From NCBI GenBank assembly GCA_963803805.1, contig CAWDOD010000002.1:448001-512000 (forward strand): a DNA stretch of 64,000 bases, in the 5' to 3' direction. The notes beneath the pieces were generated by a model. It did no database searches, was not told the DNA's origin, and was given only the letters and a program-made list of their open reading frames with translations. Positions within the stretch are counted from its first letter, which is position 1; each line of letters starts with the position of its first letter. Positions 976 through 64,000 of the stretch are shown here, piece by piece. The DNA is from an uncultured cyanobacterium. GTDB lineage: Bacteria; Cyanobacteriota; Cyanobacteriia; Cyanobacteriales; CAWCAG01. The position numbers and the translations under genes were made by a program.

Positions 976-1145
976 AAAAAGAAACTTTTGGTAGAAAGTA
1001 TATTGAACCAGCTACTAAAGATGTAGGCTGCGATCGCTCATTTTACTCTTTAAAATAGTCTGGCGCCCAAAAATAAGTCTAATGAAATACATAAATTAGT
1101 CTTGCTTGCTATACACAAAATGTTTGGAAAATAATACTTTTACTT

Positions 1146-1186
1146 AAAAAAAGGATAAGTTCTATGTAATAGAAAACTTATCCCCT
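1146..1186 (-). terminator. Rho-independent terminator of the GlsB/YeaQ gene
   Basis: Stem GGATAAGTT(TT)CTAT / ATAGAACTTATCC followed by T7 on the minus strand. Confidence 0.7.
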
Positions 1187-1202
1187 TAGTTTTTAGATGA
1201 TT

Positions 1203-1481
1203 CTAAGCTCTACGGGTAATTAGACCCCAGATGAAAATCAATAACATTGCTCCTAGAACTGCAAAAATAATACTAGGAAGACTAAAAGCACCTGCTGAAG
1301 CTGCGGCTGCACCACTGCTACCAAGCAACATTTGACCTAAATATCCGCCTACAAGGGCCCCCAAAATCCCTAAACCCAAGGTTGCGAAAATGCCGCCCCC
1401 TTGATGTCCTGGATAAATAAGTTTTGCTAGGGCCCCAGCAATCAAACCCAAAAGTAGCCAAGCAATAATACCTGTCATCAA
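1203..1481 (-). CDS. GlsB/YeaQ/YmgE family (transglycosylase-associated) stress membrane protein
   Basis: IIAWLLLGLIAGALAK..PG...LGILGALVGG pattern; AGGAGG RBS upstream. Confidence 0.9.
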   Translation of the reverse strand: MMTGIIAWLLLGLIAGALAKLIYPGHQGGGIFATLGLGILGALVGGYLGQMLLGSSGAAAASAGAFSLPSIIFAVLGAMLLIFIWGLITRRA

Positions 1482-1719
1482 CTTTCCTCCTTATAAAACT
1501 AAACTCTATGCTTTTCATTCTATGAGGATTATTTTTACTTTGAGCAATACAAAATATTAATAAAAGCAAACTCTAACTTTTGAAAAGACCAAGTATCTTC
1601 CTAAAGTTATAGTAAGTTATTACGAGGAATTTTTTTTTATGTACGAAGTATGATTCTTGATAAAGTCGTTCTTTGTTATTATAATTACAAACTTAGTAAT
1701 GTTAAAAAGGCACTAATTT

Positions 1720-1905
1720 ATGCATTTACTAATAACAGAAGCAGCTTCCCAAGCAGGAAGTTTTCCTTTAGCTGCAACCATATTATTAGTTGTCGGCTTT
1801 ATCGCCGCAGTATCTCTCGGCTCCATCGCTTGGTATAATTCTAAGCGTCCTGTTGGTTGGGAAGGTAAAGAACGTCCTGACGTAGTTCCCAAAGTTGATA
1901 AATAA
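1720..1905 (+). CDS. psb35: Photosystem II assembly protein Psb35
   Basis: Single TM helix followed by GSIAWYNSKRPVGWE.KERPD.VPKV, the Psb35 signature. Confidence 0.85.
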   Translation: MHLLITEAASQAGSFPLAATILLVVGFIAAVSLGSIAWYNSKRPVGWEGKERPDVVPKVDK

Positions 1906-2020
1906 ACTTCAAGTCTTGAATTTTTTTGATTGCTAAGTTTGCTGTGCAAACTTCCTAGTCATTAAATGCTTTTCAATCTAAATCAAATAAATACTAAACA
2001 CAGTTTTTCAGAAAAAAATT

Positions 2021-2362
2021 ATGAGTGAACAAAAATCTTCTGGTGCTAACTACGACCGCAATCTAGTTACGGCTGAAACCGCAGCCCGTCAGGAAAGAGA
2101 GGGTAAAAATTTCAAGAAAACTCCTGAGAAAGAAGGAGACATAGATACAACTAGTGGCTACACAGTAGATAAAGAAGGATTAGCTAATAATTATGCTGTT
2201 GAACCTGAAATGTATGCAGAAACACCAGGGGATATGCAAAAAGATGAAGAAGAAGTAACCGCAGAGCGTAGCCAAGAACTTAAAGAAGTTAATAAAACCG
2301 ATGAAGATGGTAAACTCTCCAAAAATAAAGATGAGCGTGGCAAAGGGCCTGGAGTTATTTAA
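2021..2362 (+). CDS. Acidic, probably disordered cyanobacterial protein with a Psb34-like N-arm motif
   Basis: 113 aa, E/K/D-rich, no TM; contains GYTVDKEGLANNYAVEPEMYAE. Confidence 0.7.
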   Translation: MSEQKSSGANYDRNLVTAETAARQEREGKNFKKTPEKEGDIDTTSGYTVDKEGLANNYAVEPEMYAETPGDMQKDEEEVTAERSQELKEVNKTDEDGKLSKNKDERGKGPGVI

Positions 2363-2406
2363 TTGAGCTTTTACTTCTTTAGTTAGACAATTTTATTCAT
2401 TCTGTT

Positions 2407-2443
2407 AAAAGGAGCTGTCCAAAATAAATACAGCTCCTTTTTT
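2407..2443. terminator. Bidirectional terminator between convergent genes
   Basis: AAAAGGAGCTGT-loop-ACAGCTCCTTTT. Confidence 0.8.
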
Positions 2444-2467
2444 ATATTTTTGATTTACTTATTAAAG

Positions 2468-4762
2468 TTACTCGGACTCTTGTAACTTCCTGCTTTGGTC
2501 ACGATCCAATTTTAAAATCAACACTCCCAAGGGTGGCAAGCACAAATCTAAGGAATAAGAGTGATTGTGAAATGACCACTCATCAGTCCATTTTCCTCCT
2601 AAATTACCCATGTTACTACCACCATATTGACGAGCATCGCTATTAAATATTTCACTGTAAAAACCAGCTTCTGGAACCCCAACCCGATAATGACTGTGGG
2701 GTTGAGGGGTGAAGTTACAAACTGCCAGCAAAAAATCATCTGATTTCTCGCTACGACGTAGGAAAGAAACTACACTATGGCTGTTATCACTACAATCAAT
2801 CCACTCAAATCCTGCTTGGTCAAAATCTTGGCTATATAGGGCTGATTCTGTTTGGTAGAGGGCATTGATGTCGCTAATGAATTGCTTAAACTGGTTATGA
2901 GGAGGATGTTGTAGCAAGTGCCACTCTAAATCTGCCCACACATTCCACTCACTCCATTGTCCAAACTCCATGCTCATAAATAGAGTCTTTTTGCCGGGAT
3001 GAGCAAACATATAGGTAAATAAGCAGCGCACGTTGGCAAATTTTTGCCAAATATCTCCAGGCATTTTGCCTAACATATTACTTTTGCCATGGACAATTTC
3101 ATCATGAGACAGAGCCAGCATATAATTCTCGCTATGGTTGTACCACATACTGAAGGTGATATTATTTTGGTGAAATTGACGGAACCAAGGGTCCATAGCA
3201 AAATAATCCAGCATATCGTGCATCCAACCCATATCCCACTTAAGGTTAAAACCTAACCCTCCTACATAGGTAGGCCAAGAAACCATTGGCCAATCAGTGG
3301 ATTCTTCAGCGATGGAAAGAATGCCGGGATAGTAGCTAAAGATAACGTTGTTTGCCTGGCGCAAGAAATCAGCAGCTTCAATGTTTTCCCGTCCCCCATA
3401 TTGGTTTGTTACCCATTCCCCTGGTTCACGACAATAATCGAGGTACAACATCGAAGCTACGGCATCAACCCGAATACCATCAATATGATATTTGTCAAAC
3501 CAGAATAGGGCATTGCTAACCAGAAAGTTCCGTACTTCGTTGCGAGAATAGTTGAAAACTAAAGTTCCCCACTCCTTATGTTCTCCCTTACGGGGATCGG
3601 CGTGTTCGTAGAGATGGGTTCCGTCAAAGAAAGCTAAACCATGTCCATCTTTGGGAAAGTGACCTGGAACCCAATCTACAATGACACCAATGTTATTTTG
3701 GTGGCACTTATCAACGAAATACATAAAGTCTTCTGGAGTGCCGTAGCGGGATGTAGGAGCAAAGTATCCCGTTACTTGATAGCCCCAGAACTCGTCAAAA
3801 GGATGTTCTGCTATGGGTAATAATTCAATGTGAGTAAAACCTAATTCTTTGACGTAGGGAATAAGTTTTTCTGCTAGTTCATAGTAAGTAAGGAAGCGCG
3901 CTTCTGGTTTTAGTTCGGAAACTTGTACCTTTTCACCTTCTCCTTTCAGGGTTAGGGCTGGTTCTGCCGAGGAAGTATGCAACCATGAACCTAAATGAAC
4001 TTCATACACAGAGATGGGCTTTTTCAACGCCTCGGTGTTACGACGTTGTTCCATCCAACTACTATCATTCCATTCATAGACTTCGAGATCCGTAACGATA
4101 GAGGCTGTTTTCGGACGTACTTCTTGTTGAAAGCCGTAGGGATCTGATTTTTCGTAGATATGGCCTTCGTAGTTTTTAATCTCGTATTTGTAATGTTCTC
4201 CAGGGGCTATTTGAGGGATAAATAGTTCCCAAACACTATCATTACGTTTACGCATTTGGTGCTGCCGCCCATCCCAGTGGTTGAAATCTCCTAAGATAGA
4301 TACGTTACGGCCACTAGGGGCCCAAACTGCGAAGTATACACCTTTGATACCATCAACTTCTGTGGGGTGAGCGCCTAATTTTTCATAAATGCGATGGTGG
4401 TTGCCTTCTGCAAAGAGATGGAGATCAAAGTCTGTTAATTTAGGGGAACGGAAAGCGTAGGGGTCATAGGTTACTCGCTCCTGTTCTCCCTCTTTGATCC
4501 GTAATTGATAGTTATTAAACTCAGTATCGTCTATTTCGCACTCAAAAAAGTTGGGGTGATAAACAGACTTCATTGCATACTCAGTACGTTTATCGGGGCA
4601 GATAACCCAAGCTGCTTCTGCTTTTGGTAAGTAAGCCCGCACAACCCAACCTTTGATCGTACCGTTTTCTTGTATGGGATGAGAACCTAATATCTCAAAG
4701 GGGTCATGGTGTTGATTCCAAACAATTTTGTCAACCTGTTCGGGAGCGATCATTGTAGACAT
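2468..4762 (-). CDS. glgB: 1,4-alpha-glucan branching enzyme
   Basis: GH13 motifs IYEVHLGSW-like, DWVPGHF, GIRVDAVASM, AEEST, LSHDEIVHGK. Confidence 0.98.
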   Translation of the reverse strand: MSTMIAPEQVDKIVWNQHHDPFEILGSHPIQENGTIKGWVVRAYLPKAEAAWVICPDKRTEYAMKSVYHPNFFECEIDDTEFNNYQLRIKEGEQERVTYDPYAFRSPKLTDFDLHLFAEGNHHRIYEKLGAHPTEVDGIKGVYFAVWAPSGRNVSILGDFNHWDGRQHQMRKRNDSVWELFIPQIAPGEHYKYEIKNYEGHIYEKSDPYGFQQEVRPKTASIVTDLEVYEWNDSSWMEQRRNTEALKKPISVYEVHLGSWLHTSSAEPALTLKGEGEKVQVSELKPEARFLTYYELAEKLIPYVKELGFTHIELLPIAEHPFDEFWGYQVTGYFAPTSRYGTPEDFMYFVDKCHQNNIGVIVDWVPGHFPKDGHGLAFFDGTHLYEHADPRKGEHKEWGTLVFNYSRNEVRNFLVSNALFWFDKYHIDGIRVDAVASMLYLDYCREPGEWVTNQYGGRENIEAADFLRQANNVIFSYYPGILSIAEESTDWPMVSWPTYVGGLGFNLKWDMGWMHDMLDYFAMDPWFRQFHQNNITFSMWYNHSENYMLALSHDEIVHGKSNMLGKMPGDIWQKFANVRCLFTYMFAHPGKKTLFMSMEFGQWSEWNVWADLEWHLLQHPPHNQFKQFISDINALYQTESALYSQDFDQAGFEWIDCSDNSHSVVSFLRRSEKSDDFLLAVCNFTPQPHSHYRVGVPEAGFYSEIFNSDARQYGGSNMGNLGGKWTDEWSFHNHSYSLDLCLPPLGVLILKLDRDQSRKLQESE

Positions 4763-4929
4763 TAAACTATCTTATTTATAAGGTTCGAGGGGCCAATAAA
4801 ACTATTAATAGGTTAACAATATTTAAGAATTGCTACAGATTTTTAGTTTTTGGATTTTGGCCTAATATATTACCCTAGATAGTTCGCCTTTACTCCAAAA
4901 CGAAGGGTCAATTTAGCAATTTGATAAGC

Positions 4930-5247
4930 CTATAAAGGAGTTATTGTACGGAATAACTGCCGTATTTGCAGTAAGAAAATAAGTTGTCTTGTTTTAGCGT
5001 TCAGTTCTGGTGCATAGGGAGACTGGGCTAACTGGGCTTCTAATTGGGCATATTCAGCCGCAGTGAGAACTTGTCCATCAACAGGCGATCGCGCTTCAGT
5101 AATAATTTCTGTACGTAGTACTTCTTCTGGGATATCTTCAGGGGGAGGTAAGGTTTGGGCTACTTGCACCACTGTAGGTAGTAGCCCTATATTTATGCCA
5201 ATTATTCCAGCCCAATACTTAGTTTTCATTCCAGGGATGCTAAGCAA
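4930..5247 (-). CDS. Conserved cyanobacterial hypothetical protein (probable signal peptide)
   Basis: LPPPEDIPEEVLRTEIITEARSPVDG..LTAAEYA motif after a hydrophobic N-terminus. Confidence 0.7.
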   Translation of the reverse strand: MLSIPGMKTKYWAGIIGINIGLLPTVVQVAQTLPPPEDIPEEVLRTEIITEARSPVDGQVLTAAEYAQLEAQLAQSPYAPELNAKTRQLIFLLQIRQLFRTITPL

Positions 5248-5357
5248 GTTGATAAAAAAAATAAGACCTTAGATGTAGTTAAAAAATTAGCAGAAGCAGT
5301 ATGTGACGGGTTAAAACCGCGTCACCGATGTTTTACTTAATTTGATCAGAGTCCAGC

Positions 5358-5486
5358 TTATTCAGTTGGTGATGGTGCTTCTTCTGTGGGGGATTCTGCT
5401 GGTTCTTCACCAGCATCGTTGCAAGCAGCAAGAGGTAGAATCGCAGACAGAATTAAAGCTAGACCAATGAGCTTTTTAAAGTTCAT
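5358..5486 (-). CDS. Small 42-aa lipoprotein (below the ORF-track size cut-off)
   Basis: MNFKKLIGLALILSAILPLAAC-NDAGEEPAESPTEEAPSPTE*; lipobox LAAC; AAGGGG RBS upstream. Confidence 0.75.
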   Translation of the reverse strand: MNFKKLIGLALILSAILPLAACNDAGEEPAESPTEEAPSPTE

Positions 5487-5697
5487 GTTTTTCCCCTTAT
5501 ACGGAGCTAATATTATAACTAAGCAACTGTAGCATGAAAGTTTTCTTCTTTCCTCTTTCTTGGGAAAGAAGCAAGAGAAGTGACTTTTGTACTAGCTACT
5601 TTTTGTGATCTATATGGTTTTTAGATAAATTGCCGAGGGAGGATTTAAGCTTACCTTTACCAATAAGTAAAGCTTCTATTCAGATACTCTTTGCTAT

Positions 5698-6597
5698 TTA
5701 CGAAATTGCGTTTTTAATTTTTTTCCTAACAGAAGTAACTAATTCTTGGGGATGACGAGAAAAATAGGCTGTTCTAACTTTAATAAAATCAGTAAAACTA
5801 TCTACTGCAATATAGCTTTCTCTTCGCAAATAAATCCAGATGCTTTGATAATAAGGTAGCTTTTTTAAGTAACTATTCTCTAGGCTTTTTCGCCTTTTCA
5901 AGCTTTCACCGCTGCGATAGTCATTTAATGATTTAGTTCCTTCAAGTACTCGATAGTTACCCCAGATTTCATCAACATACTTTACGTTAGCTACTTGAAC
6001 TGCTTTAAATAGAAAATCCAAGTCCATTAGATAATTTTCTTGAATATCATATTCACCTATTTCTTCATGCAAACATTTATGATAAAAGTAAGCAGAGGGA
6101 TTAACAGGATGAGGATTGATCTTAAATCCTTTTAATAAGTCTGTTAAACATAGTTTCCGTGGTTTATTAATATATTTTAGCTCTTCCTTAGCATCCCAAA
6201 CATTACAATTGCCTACTAATAGACTTGGTTTAGGTAAATCAGTAAACAATTCTAAGATTCGATTAAGAACGTTAGCTTGGTAGTAATCATCTACATTCAA
6301 GATAGCAATAATGTCACCTTTAGCTAAAGCTATGGCTTTATTCATGGCATCTGACTGGCCTTGATCTGGAGCAGAAATTAAGCGAATATGAGCATACTTT
6401 TCCGCATATTTTTTGACAATATCGACAGTATTGTCTGTTGAGTCGCCATCCATAATAATATGCTCAACTTGGGGGCAATTTTGGGTAATCACAGCTTGAA
6501 GACAATCTTCAATATACTCTGCGCCGTTGTATACAGGGGTAATAACACTAATTTCACCTGTAGAATTCAGGTTAAATAAATCCTCGGACTTCGACAT
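5698..6597 (-). CDS. Glycosyltransferase family 2
   Basis: ISVITPVYN, IIMDGDSTD, DQGQSDAMNK, LNVDD. Confidence 0.93.
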   Translation of the reverse strand: MSKSEDLFNLNSTGEISVITPVYNGAEYIEDCLQAVITQNCPQVEHIIMDGDSTDNTVDIVKKYAEKYAHIRLISAPDQGQSDAMNKAIALAKGDIIAILNVDDYYQANVLNRILELFTDLPKPSLLVGNCNVWDAKEELKYINKPRKLCLTDLLKGFKINPHPVNPSAYFYHKCLHEEIGEYDIQENYLMDLDFLFKAVQVANVKYVDEIWGNYRVLEGTKSLNDYRSGESLKRRKSLENSYLKKLPYYQSIWIYLRRESYIAVDSFTDFIKVRTAYFSRHPQELVTSVRKKIKNAIS

Positions 6598-6692
6598 TTG
6601 TTGAGTAGGAATAATAAAATTAATTCAGGGTATAAAAATCTAGATTAACATAGAAAATATTTGGCAATTACTATAGACAGTCATTACAGCTT

Positions 6693-7994
6693 ATGAAAGT
6701 TCTTTATGATACATCATTACTTGGAGCTAGCACTGGTGCATATGGCTTTAAATCAGGGTTGTTTCGAGTCACAGAAACATTAGCTTCTGAGTTAGTTAAT
6801 CTTCCCGAATGCGAAGTTACTTTTGGTGCTGGTGTCTCTTTAGAGATATGGAGTAACTCCCAGAAATATTTAGAGTCTCATGCTCTTTTAAAAGAAGTTC
6901 CTTTTGTCAGTAATACTGAAGTAAATATAGCCAGAAGAAAGCTTTATGATTTAACCGAAAAATCTATTAATGTTTTCCATAAGTTAGGCTGGCGCAAAAC
7001 CAAAAAAATACGGGAAAGCTTACTAGATTTATGGGCATATAATTTTCAAGCTCTTTCTATTGAGGGCTTACAAAAACAAGATATCTATCACTCTTTATAT
7101 CACGTTATTCCTCAAAGAGTTAAGAAGGTCAAAACCCTTAGTCGCTTTTTAACAGTACATGACATTATTCCTATAATATATCCTCATTTCTTTGGTCTGG
7201 ATAAGAATTTTACTAAAGCCAAGAAAACTTACAATCTCAAAGAAAGTTTGGATAGCTTAGATAGAGATGATTGGCTCATTTGTGTCTCTCATTCTACCAA
7301 AAGCGACCTCTGTAATCACTTAGGCAACAAAATTGATGAACAGAAAGTTTTTGTTACTCATTTAGCTGCCTCAGATTTATTTTATCCTTGCACTAATCAG
7401 CAAAAGGTTGCGGCGGTAAAGAAGAAATATGCTATACCTGATGCGCCTTATATTTTAAGTTTGAGTACCTTAGAACCGAGAAAGAATATTGAGCAAACTA
7501 TTCGCTGTTTTGCAAGGCTTGTAGAACAGGAAAAAATTTCAGATTTGCATCTTGTTTTAGCCGGTAAAAAGGGCTGGAATTATGATGACATTTTCCAAGA
7601 AATTTCTAATAATCCCAAAATCAAAGAGCGGGTGATTTGTACAAATTATGTAGCTGATGAAGATTTAGCTGCACTTTATAGTAGTGCCTTAGTTTTTGTC
7701 TATCCTTCTTTTTATGAAGGTTTTGGTTTGCCACCTTTAGAGGCTATGCAATGTGGCACTCCGGTAATTACTTCTAATACTTCTTCTTTACCTGAAGTTG
7801 TTGGCGAGGCAGGAATTATGGTTGATCCTCACGATGAAGATGAACTTTGTCAGCAAATGCTGAAAGTTTATAATAACTCTTTATTTAGGGATTCTTTAGC
7901 TATTAAAGCAAAGGAACGTGCTAAAAAGTTTAGTTGGTCAAAATGCGCCCAGGAAACTATTGACGCTTATAAATATGCTATGGCTAATTCTTAG
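6693..7994 (+). CDS. Glycosyltransferase family 4 (GT-B, mannosyltransferase-like)
   Basis: [29 protein letters not shown]. Confidence 0.95.
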
Positions 7995-8758
7995 TTGTCA
8001 ATATTAAGCTGTTCGAGAATCTTTCTAACTTCTACCAGAGAAAGGTCATAAACCGCAGCAATTTGTTCTATAGTTAAACCCAAGGATAATAGTCTGCTTA
8101 TCGCTCGTTGACGTTCAGACTCTGCTCGTTGACGCTCAGACTCTTCAGCAAGAGGATAAGGATTACCTTGTTCGTCGTACCAGTATAACCATTCCCTTGT
8201 CCACTCTACATAAGTCCCTCTACTTCTACCGATTCCTAAGCCTATTTCCGGTAGCCAGTAGGGTTCGTTTCCTATTTGTAAAACGTATTCTCCCTCTTCT
8301 AAACGATACAACTCCAGAGGCTGATGTCGCTCTCTTTGCCAATGACTGGGGTTATAAATCAGGTAGTAAAGTACTCCTAACCTTTTATATTTTTCTTTCT
8401 TCTGTTCGTACTCATCGTTATATTTCTTAGAAACTACTTCAATGGCAAACAGGGGCGGAATATAATCCTCTTCCCACAACACATAACTCAGCCTCCCTCT
8501 TTCTCCTTTGCGCCTGTCTACACCAATACTTAAGAAGCCATCGGGTACTAAAACAGGTTGACGTTGGTTTTCCAAAAGGTAGTAAACCCCCATATCTACC
8601 CCAAAAAACCAATCCTGCCGTTCTCGCCAAATAAAAGCCAGAATAGTTAAAAGTAAGTTAGGAACTAGGTTTTGTAGTTCATTATCCACAGGGGTATCAT
8701 CAGAGCAAGGTAACTCCTCACTGGTGGGTAAACGCGAAAGCGGTTCAAATTGTACCAT
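7991..8758 (-). CDS. Uma2 (DUF820) family endonuclease
   Basis: LPCSDDTPVDNELQ, VPDGFL, IEVVS, AESERQR repeats. Confidence 0.93.
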   Translation of the reverse strand: MVQFEPLSRLPTSEELPCSDDTPVDNELQNLVPNLLLTILAFIWRERQDWFFGVDMGVYYLLENQRQPVLVPDGFLSIGVDRRKGERGRLSYVLWEEDYIPPLFAIEVVSKKYNDEYEQKKEKYKRLGVLYYLIYNPSHWQRERHQPLELYRLEEGEYVLQIGNEPYWLPEIGLGIGRSRGTYVEWTREWLYWYDEQGNPYPLAEESERQRAESERQRAISRLLSLGLTIEQIAAVYDLSLVEVRKILEQLNIDN

Positions 8759-8784
8759 CTGTGGTTACTCCTTTAACTAAAAAA

Positions 8785-10023
8785 CTATTCTAAGCTTTGA
8801 ATCGCAAACTTCACCTTTTCCCTCACAGCTTGCCAAGAATATTCTGCTTGTAGCAACTCATATCCCCCTTGAGCTAAATTTCGTCCCAGGTTGGGATCAG
8901 ACCAAAGTTGACTTACCGCAGCAACAATTTCTTCTACACTATCTCTAATCAGCAAATGTGTGCCATCTTCGGCTTTAATACCTTCAGCCCCCTTACTTGT
9001 ACTAACCACAGGACAGCCAGCAGCGAAAGCTTCGAGGATTTTCAGGCGCGTACCTCCTCCTTCTAACAAAGGTACTACCATGACCCTAGCAGCAGCTAAA
9101 TAGGGACGAATATCTTCCACCTTACCTGTAACGATTATACCGGGTTCTTTTTTTGCTATCTGTTTCATGTAAGCTGTGGGGTTGCGCCCGACTAAAAGTA
9201 AGCGACAATGGGGATAAATTTCTTGCAATCGTGGGTAAATTTTTTCTACTAGCATCCTCATAGCAACAAGGTTAGGTTCGTGGGTATAGGAAGCTGTAAA
9301 AATAAGGGTTTGAGAGTTTGGCGACAACTCTGGGGGTATATAACATTGACCAAGGCGTACTGGGTCGTAGTATTCTGGATTAACACCATTAGAAACAACA
9401 TGAGTATCAGCTTTTTTCGTCGCTAACTTTTGCAGAAGAGAAGCATCTTCCTCGCTACAAACCCAAACTTGATTTGTTTGATTAAAGAGATTTTGCTCTA
9501 TAGTTTCTATATGTTTGAGCCAAGATTGAGAAACCTTTTTATCCAAACTTGTTTGCATTTCTTGACGCAAAAAAGTTTCGATATTATGAGCATCATAAAT
9601 TACTTTGCAATCATGACGTTTAAATAAGCTTAAGTAACGGTGGAGCCACAATTCTTCTAAGATGACGATTGAAGGTTTAAATTCAGCTAATATTTCCTTG
9701 ATTTGTTTAACTACAACCTCTCCATACAACTGATTACTCCAGGGATGATGGGCAGGTTGCAACCACCACAACTTATCTTTGATTTTCCTAAAGATGGATT
9801 GCCCTTTAGCAAGTTCTTCAAAATAATAGTTATGCCAAATCTCCACTCCTTCAGGAAATTTCCCCTCACCCTTTACTTTCTCAGAAACAATAGAAACAAC
9901 GGCTACTGACCCCAGGGTTTTCATGATATTAATATTTTGCCAGTTGCGTAAAGCGACTCCACCCATAGGCGGATAGGGTAAATGCCTGGTTATAAACAGG
10001 GTCGAAATTGCTTTTTTATTCAC
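8785..10023 (-). CDS. Glycosyltransferase family 4
   Basis: PYPPMGG..LR, DAHNIE, GGGTRLKILEAFAAGCPVVST. Confidence 0.92.
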   Translation of the reverse strand: MNKKAISTLFITRHLPYPPMGGVALRNWQNINIMKTLGSVAVVSIVSEKVKGEGKFPEGVEIWHNYYFEELAKGQSIFRKIKDKLWWLQPAHHPWSNQLYGEVVVKQIKEILAEFKPSIVILEELWLHRYLSLFKRHDCKVIYDAHNIETFLRQEMQTSLDKKVSQSWLKHIETIEQNLFNQTNQVWVCSEEDASLLQKLATKKADTHVVSNGVNPEYYDPVRLGQCYIPPELSPNSQTLIFTASYTHEPNLVAMRMLVEKIYPRLQEIYPHCRLLLVGRNPTAYMKQIAKKEPGIIVTGKVEDIRPYLAAARVMVVPLLEGGGTRLKILEAFAAGCPVVSTSKGAEGIKAEDGTHLLIRDSVEEIVAAVSQLWSDPNLGRNLAQGGYELLQAEYSWQAVREKVKFAIQSLE

Positions 10024-54635: not shown

Positions 54636-54748
54636 CTTCTCAACTTTCTCATCCCTGAATTTGTGAGCAATCTTAGCTTATTAACGAATGCTGTGAACTT
54701 ACCTGTAGTTTATGATTGATAAATAATAACTGATTGAGACTAAAGCCA

Positions 54749-55312
54749 ATGTCAGTAATGACAGTAAAAGACCTCGAACAACTACAAACTACTCTTAACA
54801 AAGCGGGTTTGGATTATCAACTAGAGTTAGAAGGTGGCAAAATAACCGTCATGAGTCCGAAGGACATTGCCTCCAGTGAAATTGGTGCTATTTTAATTCG
54901 GCTATTAGGTAACTGGGTTTATCCTCGCCTTCTAGGGAGAATTTTCGACTCTGCCGGGGGTTTCATTATGCCTGATAGTAATGTTAAAGCACCGGATGTT
55001 TCCTTTGTCAGGGCAGCAAGATTACGGCAAAGTGTTCGCTATTTTGGGGATATGGTTCCTGATTTAGTTGTAGAAATCAAATCCCAAAGTGATAGAATTA
55101 GACCTCTGGTAGAGAAAATCGAGATGTTTTTATCTTTGGGTGCAGAGGTAGGAATTCTAATTGACCCAGATAATAAAACTGTAGTTATTTATAGAAATTC
55201 TGGGGAACCAACCCAATTAACAAACAATGATACCTTGACAATACCGGAACTTTTTCCTGGTTGGGAACTACCTGTTAGAGAACTTTGGCCTCCTATATTT
55301 GAAGAAGAGTAG
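54749..55312 (+). CDS. Uma2 family endonuclease
   Basis: DSAGGF, APDVSFV, PDLVVEIKS, LIDP; ATG 54749. Confidence 0.92.
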   Translation: MSVMTVKDLEQLQTTLNKAGLDYQLELEGGKITVMSPKDIASSEIGAILIRLLGNWVYPRLLGRIFDSAGGFIMPDSNVKAPDVSFVRAARLRQSVRYFGDMVPDLVVEIKSQSDRIRPLVEKIEMFLSLGAEVGILIDPDNKTVVIYRNSGEPTQLTNNDTLTIPELFPGWELPVRELWPPIFEEE

Positions 55313-55519: not shown

Positions 55520-57619
55520 ATGGAACTAAGCGAGAACCAATCTAGGTCGTTGAATTGGCGCGGAGAAAGTGCCTTAGCTGCCATTGTTTTCACAGATGTG
55601 GAGTCTTTTACTCCGATCATGGCAGCGGATGAAAAGCACGCTTTGGCCTTGATACAGAGAGATTTTCAATTAATGGCTCGCTTTTGCGAACAATGGGAAG
55701 GACAAGTACTCAAATACTTGGGAGATGGTATGTTGATGTACTTTGTTAGCGCCGAAAAAGCTGTAGATTGTGCCATTGAAATTCAAAAAGAGTTAGTAAC
55801 CACAGCAACTACTTTAGAAAAGAAAGATATTTTAACCCATCGCATCGGTATACATTTGGGAGATGTCTTCTTTAATGGTCAAGATGTCATGGGAAAAGGG
55901 GTTAATATGGCTTCTCGGTTAGAAGGACAATCTCAACCTGGAGGAATTTGTATTTCCCACACAGTTTATGAAGTGGTTAAAAATCGCCTCCAAGCCCCTA
56001 TTACCTATGCAGGGATGAGGAAATTAAAAGGTATCCGTGAACCTGCCCCTATTTATTTAATCCCCCCACCACGCCAAAAAATAGAAACAAAAACCAGGAT
56101 ATTTATAAGTTATCGTAGCCAAGAACCAGATTTAAGCCTTGCCCAGGAGTTTTACCATACTTTGATTAAAGCTGATTATGAAGCTTTTATGGCAGGGGAA
56201 AGTATTCGTTTAGGGGAAAGGTGGGCCCAAAGAATTGAAGATGAATTAAAATGCTGTGATTATTTACTACTACTTCTTTCTGAACAATCTGCTGCCAGCG
56301 AGATGGTGACAGAAGAGATTCGCCGGGCGAAGGAATTACATAACCTTAATTCCGATGGTAAGCCTTATATTTTACCCATTAGGGTTAAATTTCCCATGAG
56401 TTCACCTTTGAATTACAACCTCAAAGGTTATTTAGATAAGATTCAACAAAGAGAATGGAATTCAGAGGCTGATACTTCTCGGTTAGTGCAAGAAGTCCTG
56501 GATTTAATTCATTCTGGAAAACCACTAGAACAGCCAGAGGAAAATACTTCCCAAGCTTATGAAACTAATTGGGAAAATTCTGATCTTCCTCCTTTACCCA
56601 TAGCTGTCCCTGAATTACCCGATGGGCAAGTAGATGTCGCTTCGGTATTTTATGTTGAACGCCCTCCCATTGAAGATCGGGCCATAGAAACAGTTATTCA
56701 AGCTGGTTCTTTAATCCGGATTAAAGCCCCCAGGCAAATGGGCAAAACTTCCTTAATGGCGAGAATATTGCACCATGCCAAGCAACAAGGTTATTGTGCT
56801 GTCCCCTTAAGCTTTCAGCTAGCCGATGGTAAGATATTTCAAGATTTAGACCGTTTCTTGCGTTGGTTTTGCGCTAGCGTGGGTAGGAGGTTACGCTTAC
56901 CCAATCAGCTTAACGATTATTGGGATGAAATTTTTGGCAGCAAGGATAACTGCACAGCCTATTTTGAAGAATATCTCCTAGAAAATCTTGATGCCCCTCT
57001 GGTTTTAGGTTTGGATGAAGTAGATTGTATTTTCAGATATCCAGAAATCGCCACAGACTTTTTTGGCTTATTGCGGGCTTGGCATGAAGAAGCCAAAAAT
57101 CGCGATATTTGGAAAAAGTTACGCTTAGTGGTAGTACATTCCACAGAAGTTTATGTACCTATGGATGTCAACCAATCCCCTTTTAACGTTGGGCTACCAT
57201 TGGAATTACCAGAATTTACCCCAGAACAAGTTTGTGAACTATCTCGTTTACACGGTTTAGATTGGCAAAAGCCACAAATTATGGAACTGATGAACTTAGT
57301 GGGGGGACATCCTTATTTAATTCGTTTGGCACTCTACCATATTGCTAGGCAAGATATTACCTTAGAAGAGTTGATGCAAGTCGCCCCTACAGAAGGTGGG
57401 TTATACAACGATCACTTGCGTCGTCATTTATGGAACTTACAACAACACCCAGAATTAGCTGGGGGGATGCAAGAGGTGGTGGAAGCTGGTACAGAATCTC
57501 TGCGTTTAGGTTCTAAGTTAGCTTTCAAATTACATAGTATGGGCTTAGTTAGTTTCCAAGGCAATGAAGTTAAACCAAGGTGTAATTTATATCAGCAATA
57601 TTTTCAAGAAAGACTTTAG
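55520..57619 (+). CDS. Class III nucleotide cyclase - TIR - AAA_35 (STAND-like) fusion
   Basis: FTD, KYLGDG, DVMG, VNMASRLE; FISY...VTEEI; APRQMGKTS, LDEVD, SPFNVG, GGHPYL. Confidence 0.9.
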   Translation: MELSENQSRSLNWRGESALAAIVFTDVESFTPIMAADEKHALALIQRDFQLMARFCEQWEGQVLKYLGDGMLMYFVSAEKAVDCAIEIQKELVTTATTLEKKDILTHRIGIHLGDVFFNGQDVMGKGVNMASRLEGQSQPGGICISHTVYEVVKNRLQAPITYAGMRKLKGIREPAPIYLIPPPRQKIETKTRIFISYRSQEPDLSLAQEFYHTLIKADYEAFMAGESIRLGERWAQRIEDELKCCDYLLLLLSEQSAASEMVTEEIRRAKELHNLNSDGKPYILPIRVKFPMSSPLNYNLKGYLDKIQQREWNSEADTSRLVQEVLDLIHSGKPLEQPEENTSQAYETNWENSDLPPLPIAVPELPDGQVDVASVFYVERPPIEDRAIETVIQAGSLIRIKAPRQMGKTSLMARILHHAKQQGYCAVPLSFQLADGKIFQDLDRFLRWFCASVGRRLRLPNQLNDYWDEIFGSKDNCTAYFEEYLLENLDAPLVLGLDEVDCIFRYPEIATDFFGLLRAWHEEAKNRDIWKKLRLVVVHSTEVYVPMDVNQSPFNVGLPLELPEFTPEQVCELSRLHGLDWQKPQIMELMNLVGGHPYLIRLALYHIARQDITLEELMQVAPTEGGLYNDHLRRHLWNLQQHPELAGGMQEVVEAGTESLRLGSKLAFKLHSMGLVSFQGNEVKPRCNLYQQYFQERL

Positions 57620-58971: not shown

Positions 58972-59646
58972 TTAATCTGTTAACCTCTTTCTTGCCCCAT
59001 CCAAAGCAGTAGTCGGATTAACTGCCACCCAACCACTAGGAGTTAATTGTCGCCACTCAAAATGGAGATGGGGAAGACTGCTTTTTCCTGTCGTTCCTAC
59101 TAAACCAATCACTTGCCCTTGTTCAACTTGCTCTCCTGATTGTACTAAGATTTTGTCAAGGTGAGCATATTGAGATTCTTGACTATCTTTCTCGTGACGC
59201 AATACCACAGTTAAACCAAATTGATCTGCGTAAGCGGCGATCGCAACTGTACCAGGATAAGCAGCAATAACAGGAGTACCAACGGGGGCTGATAAGTCTG
59301 CACCTGTATTAAATTCATTCGCTTTGGTAACAGGGTTAGTACCCCAACCGAAAGGTACAGTAGTTGGGGCGGCGATGGCTAAAGGAAATTGTAAGGGCAG
59401 GTTATTATTACCCAACTGTCCTTGAGAATCAACTTTGGGTTGGTAATTCTCCACACTACCTTGAAACCCCGGTAAAGGATTAGAATACCTGCGCCCTCGG
59501 TTAACTCGAATACCTTCAGTTTCTGGTCTAGGGGTTTGTGCCTGAGCTAAATTTGTTTGGTATAACTCAATTAAACTACTACCTGCGATCGCTAAGCTAA
59601 CAACTAAGGTAATGCTAGAGATTATCAAATAACGTTTGGGAAACAT
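58972..59646 (-). CDS. M23 family peptidase (first Zn ligand His replaced by Asn)
   Basis: NTGADL, GTPVIAA, YAHL, VGTTG.S..PHLHFE. Confidence 0.88.
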   Translation of the reverse strand: MFPKRYLIISSITLVVSLAIAGSSLIELYQTNLAQAQTPRPETEGIRVNRGRRYSNPLPGFQGSVENYQPKVDSQGQLGNNNLPLQFPLAIAAPTTVPFGWGTNPVTKANEFNTGADLSAPVGTPVIAAYPGTVAIAAYADQFGLTVVLRHEKDSQESQYAHLDKILVQSGEQVEQGQVIGLVGTTGKSSLPHLHFEWRQLTPSGWVAVNPTTALDGARKRLTD

Positions 59647-59860
59647 AAGTCAAAAGTCAAAAGTTAAAATCATTATGACTTATTCCCTACCCCCTTACTC
59701 CGTCCGCACTTTTAATAGCAGTTAGCAATTATCAATCTAGCTTTTGCGTGTTAATACTGAATCAATCTGCTATTCTGTAAATATAGTTAGTGCATATAAT
59801 GAGATGAGGTATCTATCTTCCGAATGAGAATATCAACATTCGTCAAGTTTAACTAAAATT

Positions 59861-61207
59861 ATGAACGACCAAGCCCTGAAACAAGCATTACTGAATTTAC
59901 CAAACCAGGAAAAAGAAGCAGTTGTCAACGACGTTTTTGTCCCAGATTTACTAAATGCTCTTGGTTTTGAGCTTATGGAGCGCATCCCCCAGTTTGCTAC
60001 AGGAAGGGGAAATGATGCAGTCGATTATGCCCTACGTCATAATACTCAGGATGATATCTTTCTCCAAACTAAAGCTAATCCTTCTGTGTTACTTGAACTA
60101 AAAGGTAGAGATATTAATCTTACTGAAGGTTCTTCTCAATATAAATCTACGGTTAAACAAATTCGTCGCTATTTATTATCGCCAAATTGTAAAAGCGTGC
60201 AGTGGGGAATCATTACTAACTCGGCTCATATTCAAGTTTTTAGAAAGCACGGCAAGGTTATTTATCCTGCTACCCAATGTCTAGAAATCACCACGGATAA
60301 TGTTGGTGAGATTGTCCAAAAGGTTGCCAATCAAATCCAAAATACTCCCAGAGCATTAACGGTAGCAGTTTATAACAATAAAGGAGGCGTAGGCAAAACC
60401 ACAACCACAGTGAATCTTGCTTCAATTCTTACTTTGAAGGGGAAGAAAGTTTTAGTTGTTGATTTTGATCCTAACCAACAAGATTTAACTAATTCACTAG
60501 GTGTAAAACCAGGAAAAGTAACTTTTTATTCTTGTTTAGAAGACAAAAAGAATCAAGTTCCCTTTGAGGAGGTGATGCGTCCTTATAAAATTCATTTCAA
60601 AAAGCTCAATAAGGATTTTGTTTTTGATGTTATTCCGGCTAACGAAGAATTTTCAAACATGGGAGAAGATGATTTAAGGAAAAATCTTAAGCGTTTTCGA
60701 TTGCGTCAGTTTCTAGGTAGTTTGAAATCACAATACGACTATATCTTAATTGATTCGCCTCCAAATTGGAGGTTTTTTAGTATTAGCGCAATCTATGCAG
60801 CAGATGTGGTTTTTATACCCACCAAACACAACAACATTTTTTCATTAGAAAATGCTGCTATAGCTATCAGTAAATATATTTCAGACGTGCAAGAAAAGCG
60901 TAAAGATGGAGGGCCGATTGCCCTACCGATTTTCTTCAATGGTGAAAAGATTAGTGATGCGGCTAGAAATACAGCCAACAAAGCAATACAAAATATCATT
61001 CAAAAAGCCAAAAAAGAGGATAAATTTGATTTGCTTCCCTATTTTTATCCCCGTTATACTTCCGCTAAAAAAGACCTTCACATTTTCGACGTACCAAGCT
61101 ACGCTCATATAGCTGATGCCGCCTTTTCCCGTATCCCAGCTACCTACAAAAATAAAACCGCACGGGATTATTACTTAAGCTTAGCCAAGGAGTATTTTTT
61201 ACAATGA
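59861..61207 (+). CDS. HsdR_N-type PD-(D/E)xK nuclease fused to a ParA/Soj ATPase
   Basis: KEAVV..LLNALGF..VDYAL..LELK..QIRRY..WGIITN; NNKGGVGKTTT, DFDPNQ, ILIDSPP. Confidence 0.9.
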   Translation: MNDQALKQALLNLPNQEKEAVVNDVFVPDLLNALGFELMERIPQFATGRGNDAVDYALRHNTQDDIFLQTKANPSVLLELKGRDINLTEGSSQYKSTVKQIRRYLLSPNCKSVQWGIITNSAHIQVFRKHGKVIYPATQCLEITTDNVGEIVQKVANQIQNTPRALTVAVYNNKGGVGKTTTTVNLASILTLKGKKVLVVDFDPNQQDLTNSLGVKPGKVTFYSCLEDKKNQVPFEEVMRPYKIHFKKLNKDFVFDVIPANEEFSNMGEDDLRKNLKRFRLRQFLGSLKSQYDYILIDSPPNWRFFSISAIYAADVVFIPTKHNNIFSLENAAIAISKYISDVQEKRKDGGPIALPIFFNGEKISDAARNTANKAIQNIIQKAKKEDKFDLLPYFYPRYTSAKKDLHIFDVPSYAHIADAAFSRIPATYKNKTARDYYLSLAKEYFLQ

Positions 61208-61887
61208 GTAACTTAAGCGATATTGGGAACTTAATGTACCTGTATCTAGAAGAAATCGAACCGGGTGAGGGGACAGATGCACCAGAATTTCTAATCAAAG
61301 CTACAGCCAAAACTCTCAGCGATTTTGGGGGGCGAAATTGGCTTCCTTTAATTGTTAAAGAAACTGGGGAAGATAGTTATGAAGCGATCGCCAACTTATT
61401 TATCTATGCGGTGGCAGAAGAAGCAGGTTTAGAAAAGGTTTGGTGTATTATTGCTGATGATAGCAAAGAAACTGCTCAATTAGCTAAAACCTTAGCTGGG
61501 GAAGTGATCCCCAAAATAAACCTTTCTACAGCTAGCCGTGATGAAATTCAAGCAACCCTACAATATTTAATTGAAAAACCTGGTAGCCCTCTCAAAGGGG
61601 TGAAACTTTCTGTAGCCACAAACCGCATTGATGAAGCCCCCCGGCAATATTGGCAAAACTTCAACGAAATTACCAAACTCCAATGTGGTATCACCAGGGG
61701 GAAAAAACTTGATACCCTCAAAGAAGTTTTTGAACTCACTCCCCAGCCCATGCCTGATGTAATCAAAGATCCAGCAATCTTAACCACCATGACTACAAAA
61801 GACTTAAAAACCATGGCCAAAAAGCGAGGAATGTCTGGCTACAGCAAAAAGAAAAAAGGCGAATTAGTGGAGTTACTCAGCCAGTAG
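61204..61887 (+). CDS. Degenerate ParB/Srx-like - HhH - Rho_N domain protein
   Basis: ATGA overlap with the upstream gene; LPLIVKE..YEAIAN..AEEAGLEKVWCIIAD; INLSTASRDEI; TTKDLKTMAKKRGMSGYSKKKKGELVELL. Confidence 0.78.
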   Translation: MSNLSDIGNLMYLYLEEIEPGEGTDAPEFLIKATAKTLSDFGGRNWLPLIVKETGEDSYEAIANLFIYAVAEEAGLEKVWCIIADDSKETAQLAKTLAGEVIPKINLSTASRDEIQATLQYLIEKPGSPLKGVKLSVATNRIDEAPRQYWQNFNEITKLQCGITRGKKLDTLKEVFELTPQPMPDVIKDPAILTTMTTKDLKTMAKKRGMSGYSKKKKGELVELLSQ

Positions 61888-61917
61888 GCGTAGACAAAAC
61901 CCGCCGTTAGGCATCGC
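61888..61917 (+). repeat. SDR5-like insertion in HIP1
   Basis: GCG[TAGACAAAACCCGCCGTTAGGC]ATCGC. Confidence 0.7.
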
Positions 61918-62255
61918 GCCACAAAAAACTGTCGCCTATTGCACTCTTTGCCTGTTGCCTTTGCCCTAACATTAGTAGCCTGTAAGACTAACATAAACTT
62001 CGGCTTAGAAAATCATTAAACTTTAGGCATATTTGCTCATATAGCAATTAACTTTAAAAAAGGCCAAACTAGAGTACATTCATTAATTGTCAATAGTTAC
62101 TAACTGAGCGAACATCAAAATTTTCTTGGCTGGGGTCATAAAAAAAGGAGCAACTACCAAAGGTTTTGATCTGGTTGTCTGCCATGAAGTCAATATTACT
62201 GATTGCTTCTGACGCAATCTGACAGGATGCCTGCTGCAACAGGAGGCTAAAACTA

Positions 62256-64000
62256 ATGACCAACAGAGATAGTCTTTATAGAATAGAACAGGAGACACTT
62301 GTGAATCAAAAAACCAACCTCGTAAAACCCATCAATATTCAAGTAGAAGATGACCGCACAGGCATGAGTATTGAAACTCTGAAGCGGGCTTTTGCTGATA
62401 ATCTTTTTTATATTCAAGGCAAACATGAATCCTTAGCTACTGTCAAAGACTTCTACATGGCTTTGGCTTATACTGTCCGAGATAGACTATTACAACGTTG
62501 GTTAAAAACCTCCAAAACCTATTCTGACCGAGATGCCAAGACAGTTTGTTACCTATCAGCAGAATTTTTGATGGGTCGTCATCTCGGTAACAACCTCATT
62601 AACATGGGGCTTTATGAAAAAATGCAGCAGGTTGTCGAAGAATCAGGGTTGGATCTAGAAGATTTGATGGAACAAGAAGTAGATCCTGGTTTAGGTAATG
62701 GCGGCTTAGGAAGGCTAGCAGCTTGTTTCCTCGATTCTTTGGCTGCTTTGGAAATTCCTGCCATTGGTTATGGCATTCGCTACGAGTTTGGTATCTTTCA
62801 CCAAATTATTCAAGATGGTTGGCAAGTAGAAATTCCTGATAAATGGTTGCGTTTTACCAACCCTTGGGAAATTGCCCGTCCTGAAGATACCGTAGAGGTT
62901 CAATTTGGTGGCTACACAGAAACCTACTGTTCTAAAAAAGGACATTATCGTGTATCTTGGGTTCCTGAACGGACAGTTATAGCTGTCCCTTATGATACTC
63001 CTGTACCTGGTTACAACACCAATACTGTCAATCCCCTCCGGCTTTGGAAAGCAGAAGCTAGTGACGAATTTAACTTCGATGCTTTCAATGCCGGTAACTA
63101 TGACCACGCTGTTTCCGATAAGATGACCTCAGAGACAATCTCTAAAGTCCTTTATCCTAACGACAACACTCCCCAAGGACGGCAGTTACGTTTAGAACAA
63201 CAATTCTTCTTCGTCTCCGCCTCCTTACAGGATATTATTCGTAATCACCTACGCCATAACAACAACTTACATAACCTCCACGAAAGAGTTGCTATTCAAT
63301 TAAACGATACTCACCCAGCAGTCAGTATTGCTGAATTGATGCGTTTACTAATAGATGTACATGAGTTGCATTGGGATACAGCTTGGGAAATTACCCAACA
63401 AACTTTTGCCTATACTAACCATACTCTCCTCCCTGAAGCCCTGGAGCGCTGGCCTGTCAGCTTGTTTGAAAGCTTGTTGCCCAGGCATTTAGAAATTATT
63501 TATGAAATAAATCATCGCTTCATGGAAGATATCCACACTTGGTATCCTGGAGATGATGCACGGGCAAGCCGACTCTCAATTATTGAAGAGTCAGGGGGGA
63601 AATCCATCCGTATGGCTAACTTAGCTTGTGTGGGCAGCCACGCCGTTAATGGAGTTGCAGCACTTCATACCAAATTGCTGAAGCAAGATACCTTAAGAGA
63701 TTTTGCTGGAACTATGGCCAGAAAAATTCTTCAACATGACCAATGGTGTTACTCCCCGTCGTTGGATATTGTTAAGTAACCCTAAACTAGCGACCTTAAT
63801 TACGGAAAAAATTGGTGATGGTTGGCTAACTAATTTAGATAAACTCGAAAAATTAGCAGCCTTTATTGATGATGCTGAATTTTGTGAGCGCTGGCGAGAA
63901 ATTAAGCTAGAAAATAAGCGCAAGCTAGCTAGTTACATTTGGAAACAAAAAGGTCTGCGGGTAGATCCTGATTCCATCTTTGATGTCTTAGTTAAGCGCC
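62256..64000 (+). CDS. glgP: Glycogen phosphorylase with a +1 frameshift at 63708-63709; continues beyond the window
   Basis: YLSAEFLMGR, GLGNGGLGRLAACFLDS, QLNDTHP, AYTNHT, NGVAALH; removing one G gives [22 protein letters not shown], open to the window end. Confidence 0.95.

Follow-up and report, generated by a model that had tools for sequence, protein, structure and literature searches.

A linked cyanobacterial gene pair encoding a nuclease-ParA fusion and a degenerate ParB-like partner, a candidate DNA-targeting module

ParA/ParB pairs are the textbook machinery that moves DNA and other cargo in bacteria. In type I partition systems (ParABS), especially those of type Ia (P1 ParA/ParB and F SopA/SopB), the operon encodes first a ParA with a deviant Walker A and then a partner of ParB fold, and type Ia ParA carries an N-terminal extension. 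Gabija, Septu, and PARIS/OLD-type systems are ATPase-plus-nuclease defence pairs that use ABC or OLD-type ATPases. The gene pair described here comes from an uncultured member of the cyanobacteria, which are polyploid and plasmid-rich, and lies in a stretch of 64,000 nucleotides (contig CAWDOD010000002.1, positions 448,001-512,000, forward strand) that is called the window below and whose numbering is used for all coordinates. Gene 1 encodes a restriction-type nuclease domain fused to a ParA ATPase, and gene 2 encodes a three-domain protein with a ParB-like head. This molecular description, i.e. the identity of the domains, is secure. As to function, the sequences tentatively suggest an ATP-gated ParA-nuclease controlled by a degenerate ParB-like partner, acting in replicon conflict or replicon maintenance; we regard this as possible and put it somewhat below an even chance. 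The two genes and their overlap are as follows.

59861..61207, + strand: gene 1, 448 amino acids (aa), nuclease domain-ParA ATPase fusion (open reading frame (ORF) list, homologues, model)
61204..61887, + strand: gene 2, 227 aa, ParB-like partner (ORF list, homologues, model)
61204..61207, + strand: ATGA overlap, with the gene 2 ATG at 61204-61206 and the gene 1 stop at 61205-61207

The ORF coordinates bear out the coupling of the two genes through ATGA that a preliminary description of the window had proposed, and tblastn matches to genes 1 and 2 are separated by a gap of 0 in most of 78 loci. Homologues of gene 1 across cyanobacteria are 56-100% identical. Alignments were built from 49 homologues of gene 1 and 45 of gene 2, and residue conservation was counted over 79 loci. 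The motifs quoted in the preliminary description are all present in the translations: KEAVV (E19), VDY (D55), ELK (E79, K81), and QIRRY (Q100..Y104) in the nuclease domain, and KGGVGKTT (174-181), DFDP (201-204), and IDSPP (297-301) in the ParA part of gene 1. Fold matches confirm its division of gene 1 into two domains and of gene 2 into three. The N-terminal domain of gene 1 is the following.

59861..60346, + strand: restriction-type PD-(D/E)xK nuclease domain, HSDR_N/BpuSI_N-like, residues 1-162 (structure match, Pfam in relatives)
60023..60103, + strand: catalytic core D55...E79-x-K81 (codons 60023-60025, 60095-60097, and 60101-60103)

The model of gene 1 has a predicted local distance difference test score (pLDDT) of 92.4 and a predicted template modelling score (pTM) of 0.92, and such a pTM for two domains points to a fixed arrangement of both in the predicted structure. 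In VIA-align, residues 2-163 match the N-terminal parts of BpuSI (3s1s_A, Z 13.1, root-mean-square deviation (rmsd) 3.2, 144 residues aligned) and DrdV (7lo5_A, Z 12.5, rmsd 2.7, 130 aligned), stretches which we take to be the endonuclease domains of both enzymes. The window protein by itself stays under the Pfam cut-offs over residues 48-129, both for HSDR_N (4.7e-4, 20.5 bits against 25.1) and for HSDR_N_2 (7.5e-4, 20.0 bits against 25). Among the 49 homologues, HSDR_N_2 matches 39 at E<=0.01 (best 1.6e-8) and HSDR_N matches 18, and a feature search gave weak leads to the BpuSI_N and HSDR_N_2 clusters with scores of 0.84-0.86.

The catalytic set, earlier described as intact-looking, is conserved in every copy that covers it among the 79 loci: D55 is kept in 77 (the remaining two are gaps), E79 and K81 in 78 each (one gap each), and Q100 in 78. 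D55, E79, and K81 are invariant across the 49 aligned homologues. Adding plasmid variants of 25-33% identity, which themselves read the classical PD...ENK, leaves the E-x-K pair, E19, Y94, and Q125 still invariant. The ratio of nonsynonymous to synonymous substitution rates (dN/dS) of the nuclease domain is 0.03-0.23 in all but one of 11 close pairs, and the exception (0.64) is a pair of very low divergence. Since the triad is invariant and kept even at 25% identity, the conservation argues that the predicted nuclease of gene 1 cuts DNA. In proteins of 785 to 2,240 aa no N-domain was scored, which is weak evidence.

Fold and D...ExK core are shared with the endonuclease domains of type IIG/IIL and type I enzymes (BpuSI 3S1S and DrdV 7LO5; HSDR_N, HSDR_N_2, and BpuSI_N). 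Unlike those restriction enzymes, the pair has no methyltransferase, target-recognition domain, superfamily 2 (SF2) motor, or HsdM/HsdS, and the motor is a ParA ATPase. Membership of the type I restriction-modification systems was considered and rejected, since gene 1 contains no helicase/SF2 motor and has no HsdM/HsdS neighbours. The remainder of gene 1 is the ATPase.

60347..61204, + strand: ParA/Soj-type ATPase with deviant Walker A, residues 163-448 (AAA_31, ParA fold)
60380..60403, + strand: deviant Walker A KGGVGKTT (K174-T181), signature lysine included (translation, conservation)

In Pfam, AAA_31 matches gene 1 at 1.4e-34 with 120 bits against a cut-off of 27. Residues 163-448 align with ParA 8ray_A (Z 27.6, 248 residues aligned) and also match MinD, McdA, and Soj, and the Foldseek list for this domain is headed by Soj, ParA, and McdA. 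NCBIfam gives generic ParA-family similarity only, far under every equivalog cut-off. The Walker A, A', and B residues K174, K179, D201, D203, and D298 are kept in 79/79 loci, and with the match to 8ray_A they uphold the earlier call of a complete ParA ATPase. The mean net charge of the domain is +7.3. Because the ParA domain is complete, the sequence argues that it may dimerise on DNA in an ATP-dependent manner, and its fusion to the nuclease suggests that cleavage may be gated by the dimer. The partner has three parts.

61213..61512, + strand: ParB/Srx-fold head, acidic, without the Box II arginines (ANLFIYA), residues 4-103
61510..61743, + strand: ComEA/Tex-like (HhH)2 (helix-hairpin-helix) domain, basic, residues 103-180
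61765..61884, + strand: Rho_N/SAP/LEM-like helical hairpin with a lysine cluster, residues 188-227

In the gene 2 model (pLDDT 90), the head (residues 4-103) is closest to PadC (6ryk_B, Z 11.1, rmsd 2.6, 94 residues aligned), followed by KorB (Z 10.4), sulfiredoxin (Z 9.3), and Spo0J (Z 5.8). Foldseek ranks ParB, Noc, and KorB first for gene 2, with M. xanthus ParB at E 1.7e-6. By sequence the signal is fainter: in Pfam the window protein matches ParB_N at 0.017 with 15.6 bits, under the cut-off of 26.3, and 36 of the 45 homologues match, the best at 2.6e-4. The position of the GxxRxxA box reads (G/A)N-x-F-(I/V)-Y-A in relatives and ANLFIYA in the window (residues 63-69), and no arginine occurs in this CTP-box stretch in any of the 79 loci. 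The head therefore has, as had been proposed, a ParB/Srx-like fold with a degenerate box for binding cytidine triphosphate (CTP). Neither a helix-turn-helix (HTH) nor a ParB C-terminal dimerisation domain is among the listed structural matches of gene 2.

The other two parts of gene 2 also turned out as first described. Residues 103-179 match ComEA (8dss_B, Z 6.6, rmsd 2.1, 61 residues aligned), the ComEA-related 2duy_A (Z 6.4), and Tex (Z 5.6), all at a moderate level. Residues 188-227 match the N-terminus of Rho (1a62_A, Z 6.3, rmsd 1.2, 40 aligned), and here Pfam agrees, with Rho_N at 5.3e-6 and 26.7 bits, above the cut-off of 24.9, and in 44 of the 45 homologues. A sequence profile of gene 2 against the PDB gave chance-level matches only (FtsY, E 0.07), plus Rho at 0.28-1. 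Mean net charges are -9.4 for the head, +5.0 for the HhH domain, and +3.4 for the tail. In the places of the HTH and dimerisation domains of ParB, gene 2 has the (HhH)2 domain and the Rho_N/SAP tail, two modules of predicted non-specific nucleic-acid binding. Judged by its model, gene 2 resembles a non-specific binder of DNA, and its ParB-like head would be the part in contact with ParA.

PadC of Myxococcus xanthus (6RYK), the best structural match of the head, is a ParB-like adaptor that connects ParA to bactofilin. According to the available portion of a 2025 survey of the ParB-CTPase fold, the ParB/Srx domain of PadC holds ParA instead of segregating DNA (PMC12704722; see also PMC5703909). 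Unlike gene 2, PadC binds CTP and bactofilin; gene 2 lacks the CTP-box arginines and carries HhH and Rho_N domains, and its ParA partner carries a nuclease.

Some partners are longer, at 266-317 aa, and appear to contain the HhH domain twice, query residues 104-180 being matched a second time; these longer forms (e.g. ORF 2254-3195 of locus L089) pair with their own nuclease-ParA subfamily, and both subfamilies co-occur in some genomes (G148, G356). A search of 1.84 billion representatives returned just 207 proteins at E<=0.001. In some of these 207, a relative of the head forms the C-terminal domain, and three such proteins exceed the ParB_N cut-off (P0283, 48.5 bits; P0281, 33.9; P0320, 29.6). 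Unrelated proteins with such a C-terminal head (P0288 and others) include a Mu-type portal (P0383) and a GNAT acetyltransferase fusion (P0313).

The association of the two genes is close. Among 80 genome loci that have a relative of gene 1, gene 2 is the next gene in 78, while L049 and L075 end at a contig edge. A phylum sample of 401 genomes was searched for gene 2 and for the N-domain of gene 1; gene 2 was found in 59 and the N-domain in 55, and of the 50 genomes with both, 48 have them on the same contig. The two genes thus co-occur elsewhere, as the preliminary description had asked to be checked. No third conserved gene was found within 5 kb; the runner-up cluster is present in 6 of 81 loci. 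Between the trees of the two genes, patristic distances are correlated (r=0.86; Mantel 0/999). In 11 close pairs, most dN/dS values of each of the five domains fall in the range 0.03-0.35, and those that are higher or undefined come from a small number of short, very little diverged segments; all five domains are under purifying selection.

The N-domain occurs without a gene 2 match in five genomes, of which G116 has it at a contig end and G314 has it with stops. The remaining three (G140, G276, and G398), genomes of 2.5-2.6 Mb from one family, have a gene 1 match and no gene 2 match. The lone gene 1 of G140 (L088, G140:C1:1769500-1774500, ORF 1347-2801) encodes 484 aa with D...ExK intact; no gene 2 ORF lies downstream of it, the next gene being an ABC ATPase. 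Since gene 1 is matched without gene 2 in this family, the partner is apparently not always needed. On the other flank of the G140 gene lies a likely rpsB, called from its sequence.

These lone copies bear on the idea of an addiction (toxin-antitoxin-like) cassette, in which the nuclease-ParA protein would be a toxin restrained by the ParB-like partner, and post-segregational killing would stabilise plasmids or regions. A two-gene cassette with an ATGA overlap that is carried on plasmids is of the expected form, and so are the patchy distribution, the several copies in some genomes, and the variable context, sometimes beside PIN, HicB, Uma2, or integrases. However, G140, G276, and G398 have a gene 1 match without a gene 2 match, in G140 with an intact D...ExK, which argues against an obligate toxin-antitoxin logic. 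The partner also appears from its model to be a large three-domain protein of DNA-binding type, unlike typical antitoxins, and the conservation of both genes far exceeds that of typical toxin-antitoxin pairs. An addiction cassette is therefore highly improbable.

The main addition to the preliminary description, from which it was absent, is the presence of the pair on plasmids. Out of 72,556 plasmid records, 8 have a match to gene 2, each of them cyanobacterial, and in the seven inspected a ParA-type gene of ~450-480 aa precedes the gene 2 match (7/7). Three of the eight are co-resident plasmids of Nostoc sp. UHCC 0870, each with its own variant (68, 56, and 33% identical); the remaining records are Acaryochloris pREB8, pLBA (records of two Leptolyngbya boryana strains), and two Pseudanabaena plasmids. 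One Pseudanabaena plasmid, of 12.6 kb, carries the pair with a CyRepA1 rep gene, and the pair is the only ParA-like system among its 9 larger ORFs in Pfam. The other plasmids inspected also carry ParM/StbA, ParA with ParB, or a ParA and partner that are both small. On contig 1 of the genome to which the window belongs lies a canonical pair of ParA (frame of 255 aa) and ParB (frame of 309 aa), so that the nuclease-ParA pair is an extra. Because the pair is carried on plasmids, replicon maintenance or inter-replicon competition is a serious alternative.

Could the pair then be a non-canonical partition or positioning system, similar to type Ia, with a DNA-binding or regulatory ParA extension and a partner that marks the cargo, be it a plasmid, a chromosome copy, or something else? 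As in ParABS, a ParA gene is followed by a translationally coupled ParB-fold partner in one operon, and both kinds of system are found on plasmids and chromosomes. The eight plasmid records, the 12.6-kb Pseudanabaena plasmid on which the pair is the sole ParA-like system in the ORFs scanned, and the three co-resident Nostoc plasmids with different variants, as incompatibility would select, agree with such a role, as do the closeness of the ParA domain to Soj/ParA and the strong purifying selection. However, the type Ia extension is an HTH, whereas here it is a catalytic-looking PD-(D/E)xK nuclease, whose D...ExK is invariant at 25-33% identity and would be needless for mere DNA binding. The partner is without the CTP-box arginines and the LG(R/K)GL motif of its ParABS counterparts, and appears to lack their HTH and dimerisation domain.

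Nor was a parS found nearby. Around the window pair (59400-62400) only short two-copy repeats were detected in place of a parS-like array, although a distant or degenerate site could escape, and the one word enriched in flanking DNA (73 and 78 loci) was HIP1, which is generic. The lack of a CTP box and the apparent lack of HTH and parS, together with the other par systems on the same plasmids and the canonical ParAB of the host chromosome, argues against classical partition, and we consider a non-canonical partition or positioning system rather unlikely. Seven Nostocaceae/Aulosira loci (L005, L011, L013, L017, L041, L060, and L071) share a different, Nostoc-specific word, GGGAACACTAGACTTAGACA, which varies slightly and lies some 40 bases ahead of gene 1; it is missing from the window and is probably a lineage-specific promoter or operator.

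The distribution of the pair is patchy by family, with 14 of 25 genomes in family f3, 8 of 45 in f6, and 10 of 20 in f7, and 1 of 225 in twelve other families. Some genomes have two or three divergent copies, and broken copies occur in G314, G002, G068, and G230. In a tree of 82 concatenated pairs, 21 changes of taxonomy label were counted against a mean of 35 after shuffling (reached in 0 of 200); Nostocales are spread over three or more clades, and two plasmid copies have their places inside groups of chromosomal copies or copies from metagenome-assembled genomes (MAGs). One copy is in a streamlined genome of 1.7 Mb. Copies of 53-62% identity (L043, L049; P0061) also turned up in MAG bins assigned to Tatlockia (Legionellales), Ignavibacteria, and Actinomycetota. 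L043 groups with Chlorogloea in the tree, and for these copies binning contamination is more likely than transfer.

Such a distribution can be set against a housekeeping DNA transaction, for example in repair, in managing the nucleoid, or in processing the several genome copies of a polyploid cell. The high identity across orders and a dN/dS of mostly 0.03-0.35 would suit it, and so would the mostly housekeeping neighbours, the copy in the streamlined 1.7-Mb genome, and a gene tree that clusters by taxonomy (21 changes against 35 shuffled). A housekeeping gene is, however, hardly expected in only 55 (N-domain) or 59 (gene 2) of 401 genomes, e.g. in 8 of 45 in f6, in two or three divergent copies in some genomes, on plasmids, in at least three clades within Nostocales, and in broken form in four genomes. 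Therefore, a housekeeping function appears quite improbable.

For the ATP-gated, partner-controlled nuclease, we infer dimer-gated cleavage, a contact between head and ParA, and a biological role along the following lines. On binding ATP, the ParA domains would form a sandwich dimer on DNA, and this dimer would join two nuclease domains, which is the condition for a double-strand cut by type I, IIG, and IIL nuclease domains of the same class. The basic HhH and SAP parts may keep gene 2 on DNA, and the acidic ParB-like head may bind the basic ParA domain in the way that ParB and PadC bind ParA. PadC and KorB, to which the head is structurally closest, are listed in the available portion of PMC12704722 among the ParB homologues that have a ParA-binding motif, and the charges fit this docking, since the head is at -9.4 and the ParA domain at +7.3. 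Docking could either switch the ATPase, with the nuclease released and silenced, or tether the ATPase to particular DNA. The role would be DNA targeting at the level of whole replicons, either to interfere with plasmid DNA that is foreign or competing, or to stabilise the carrier replicon. Plasmid carriage, divergent co-resident variants, patchiness, and multiple copies all suggest replicon-level biology. A more specific form of the same scheme, in which ATP-dependent ParA-nuclease dimers scan and cut DNA unless a CTP-less ParB-like partner, spread non-specifically on resident DNA, silences them, is doubtful.

Several observations weigh against the reading as a partner-controlled nuclease in replicon conflict or maintenance. 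The sequence alignment of the ParA domain with HpSoj ends before the C-terminal region, which presumably holds the DNA-contacting lysines of HpSoj. The lone gene 1 copies of the G140 family have no matched partner to control them. Both proteins are 56-90% identical across orders, which is unusually high for defence genes. Gene 2 was found in 0 of 50,697 phage records, and of 12 matched loci in IMG/VR only L092 (a 58-kb contig) has the full pair; L093 has the head only, and the other ten match the Rho_N tail alone. The N-terminus of gene 2 (SDIGNLM; G8 and L10 invariant and usually no basic residue in the alignment of 45 homologues) provides neither a free basic peptide nor the LG(R/K)GL motif. 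LG(R/K)GL is described as a ParA-binding motif in the available portion of PMC12704722.

The genomic context belongs on the same side. A survey of 143 immediate neighbours in 78 loci with Pfam and PADLOC returned mostly housekeeping or miscellaneous genes, with a sprinkling of Uma2 (5), PIN (3), integrases (3), XisI (3), HicB, and a TnpB fragment, and in Pfam no methylase or HsdM/HsdS among them. PADLOC matches 12 of the 143 at 1e-10, and these are generic (ABC/UvrA, amine oxidases, TPR, TnpB) or Uma2; the Uma2 neighbours in four loci match the PADLOC candidate family PDC-S03. No bona fide defence system was among the 143 neighbours, and the enrichment in defence islands that might have been expected from the preliminary description is not seen. 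Since a defence-island context is missing and conservation is high (56-90% identity, with dN/dS mostly 0.03-0.35), a typical anti-phage system is argued against, and the roles first suggested, whether in defence, toxin-antitoxin control, or DNA elimination, are not demonstrated.

Against PADLOC-DB 2.0, gene 1 gives matches limited to the P-loop (residues 159-206; the candidate PDC-M28B and mad8) and gene 2 gives none, so that neither protein matches a system. With Gabija, Septu, and PARIS/OLD-type systems the pair may have in common that an NTPase controls a nuclease; in contrast to them, the ATPase is a ParA, there is no PADLOC system match, and the context is not that of a defence island.

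No published description of the pair was found, including in the available portions of PMC12704722 and PMC10899382, although the supplementary datasets of PMC12704722 might list relatives. The earlier statement that no characterised system is known to have this layout agrees with the literature searched. The 2025 survey searched Pfam domains at gathering cut-offs, and in its available portion the ParB-DUF3850 fusion is the only one consistently encoded beside parA (PMC12704722). Gene 2 would escape such a survey, because it is under the Pfam gathering cut-off (15.6 against 26.3 bits). In source annotations, relatives of gene 2 are called 'Rho termination factor' and those of gene 1 'cellulose biosynthesis protein BcsQ' or 'cobyrinic acid a,c-diamide synthase'; the module is currently mis-annotated.

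If the reading as a partner-controlled ParA-nuclease is true, a live-looking restriction nuclease on a ParA, together with a ParB that has no CTP switch, would extend the ParA/ParB machinery to the cutting of DNA and would help explain how cyanobacteria manage or police their replicons. In the more specific form, with dimers that are silenced on resident DNA, it would represent a new ParA-based class of replicon-level immunity or plasmid competition, widespread in cyanobacteria and missed by surveys at Pfam cut-offs. The plasmid copies may also matter for stable cyanobacterial vectors.

In the window, a gene for an M23 peptidase precedes the pair and one for a glycogen phosphorylase follows it. 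Near the pair there is no methylase, HsdS, or rep gene in the window; the preliminary description had said as much, and had likewise seen no parS array, which stands for the window, but a plasmid relative does adjoin a rep gene (CyRepA1). Two genes upstream of the pair, at 55520-57619 (+ strand), is a protein of 699 aa with adenylate/guanylate cyclase, TIR, and AAA_35 (STAND-like) domains, possibly a signalling or immune protein, and further upstream, at 54734-55312 (+ strand), is a putative endonuclease of the Uma2 family. In the Fischerella muscicola contig of L056 (~887-9490), the gene 1 match is interrupted and a gap of 387 bases precedes gene 2; the neighbours there are a TcA-like-domain protein and a telomere resolvase of ResT/TelK type, which hints at a linear element. 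The frame of the glycogen phosphorylase in the window (62256-63999, + strand) breaks at ~63,700-63,780 and continues in another frame from 63703. The ORF at 62256-63779 spans positions 2-364 of 713 of the Pfam Phosphorylase model; either the frame has shifted, the gene is a pseudogene, or the sequence contains an error.

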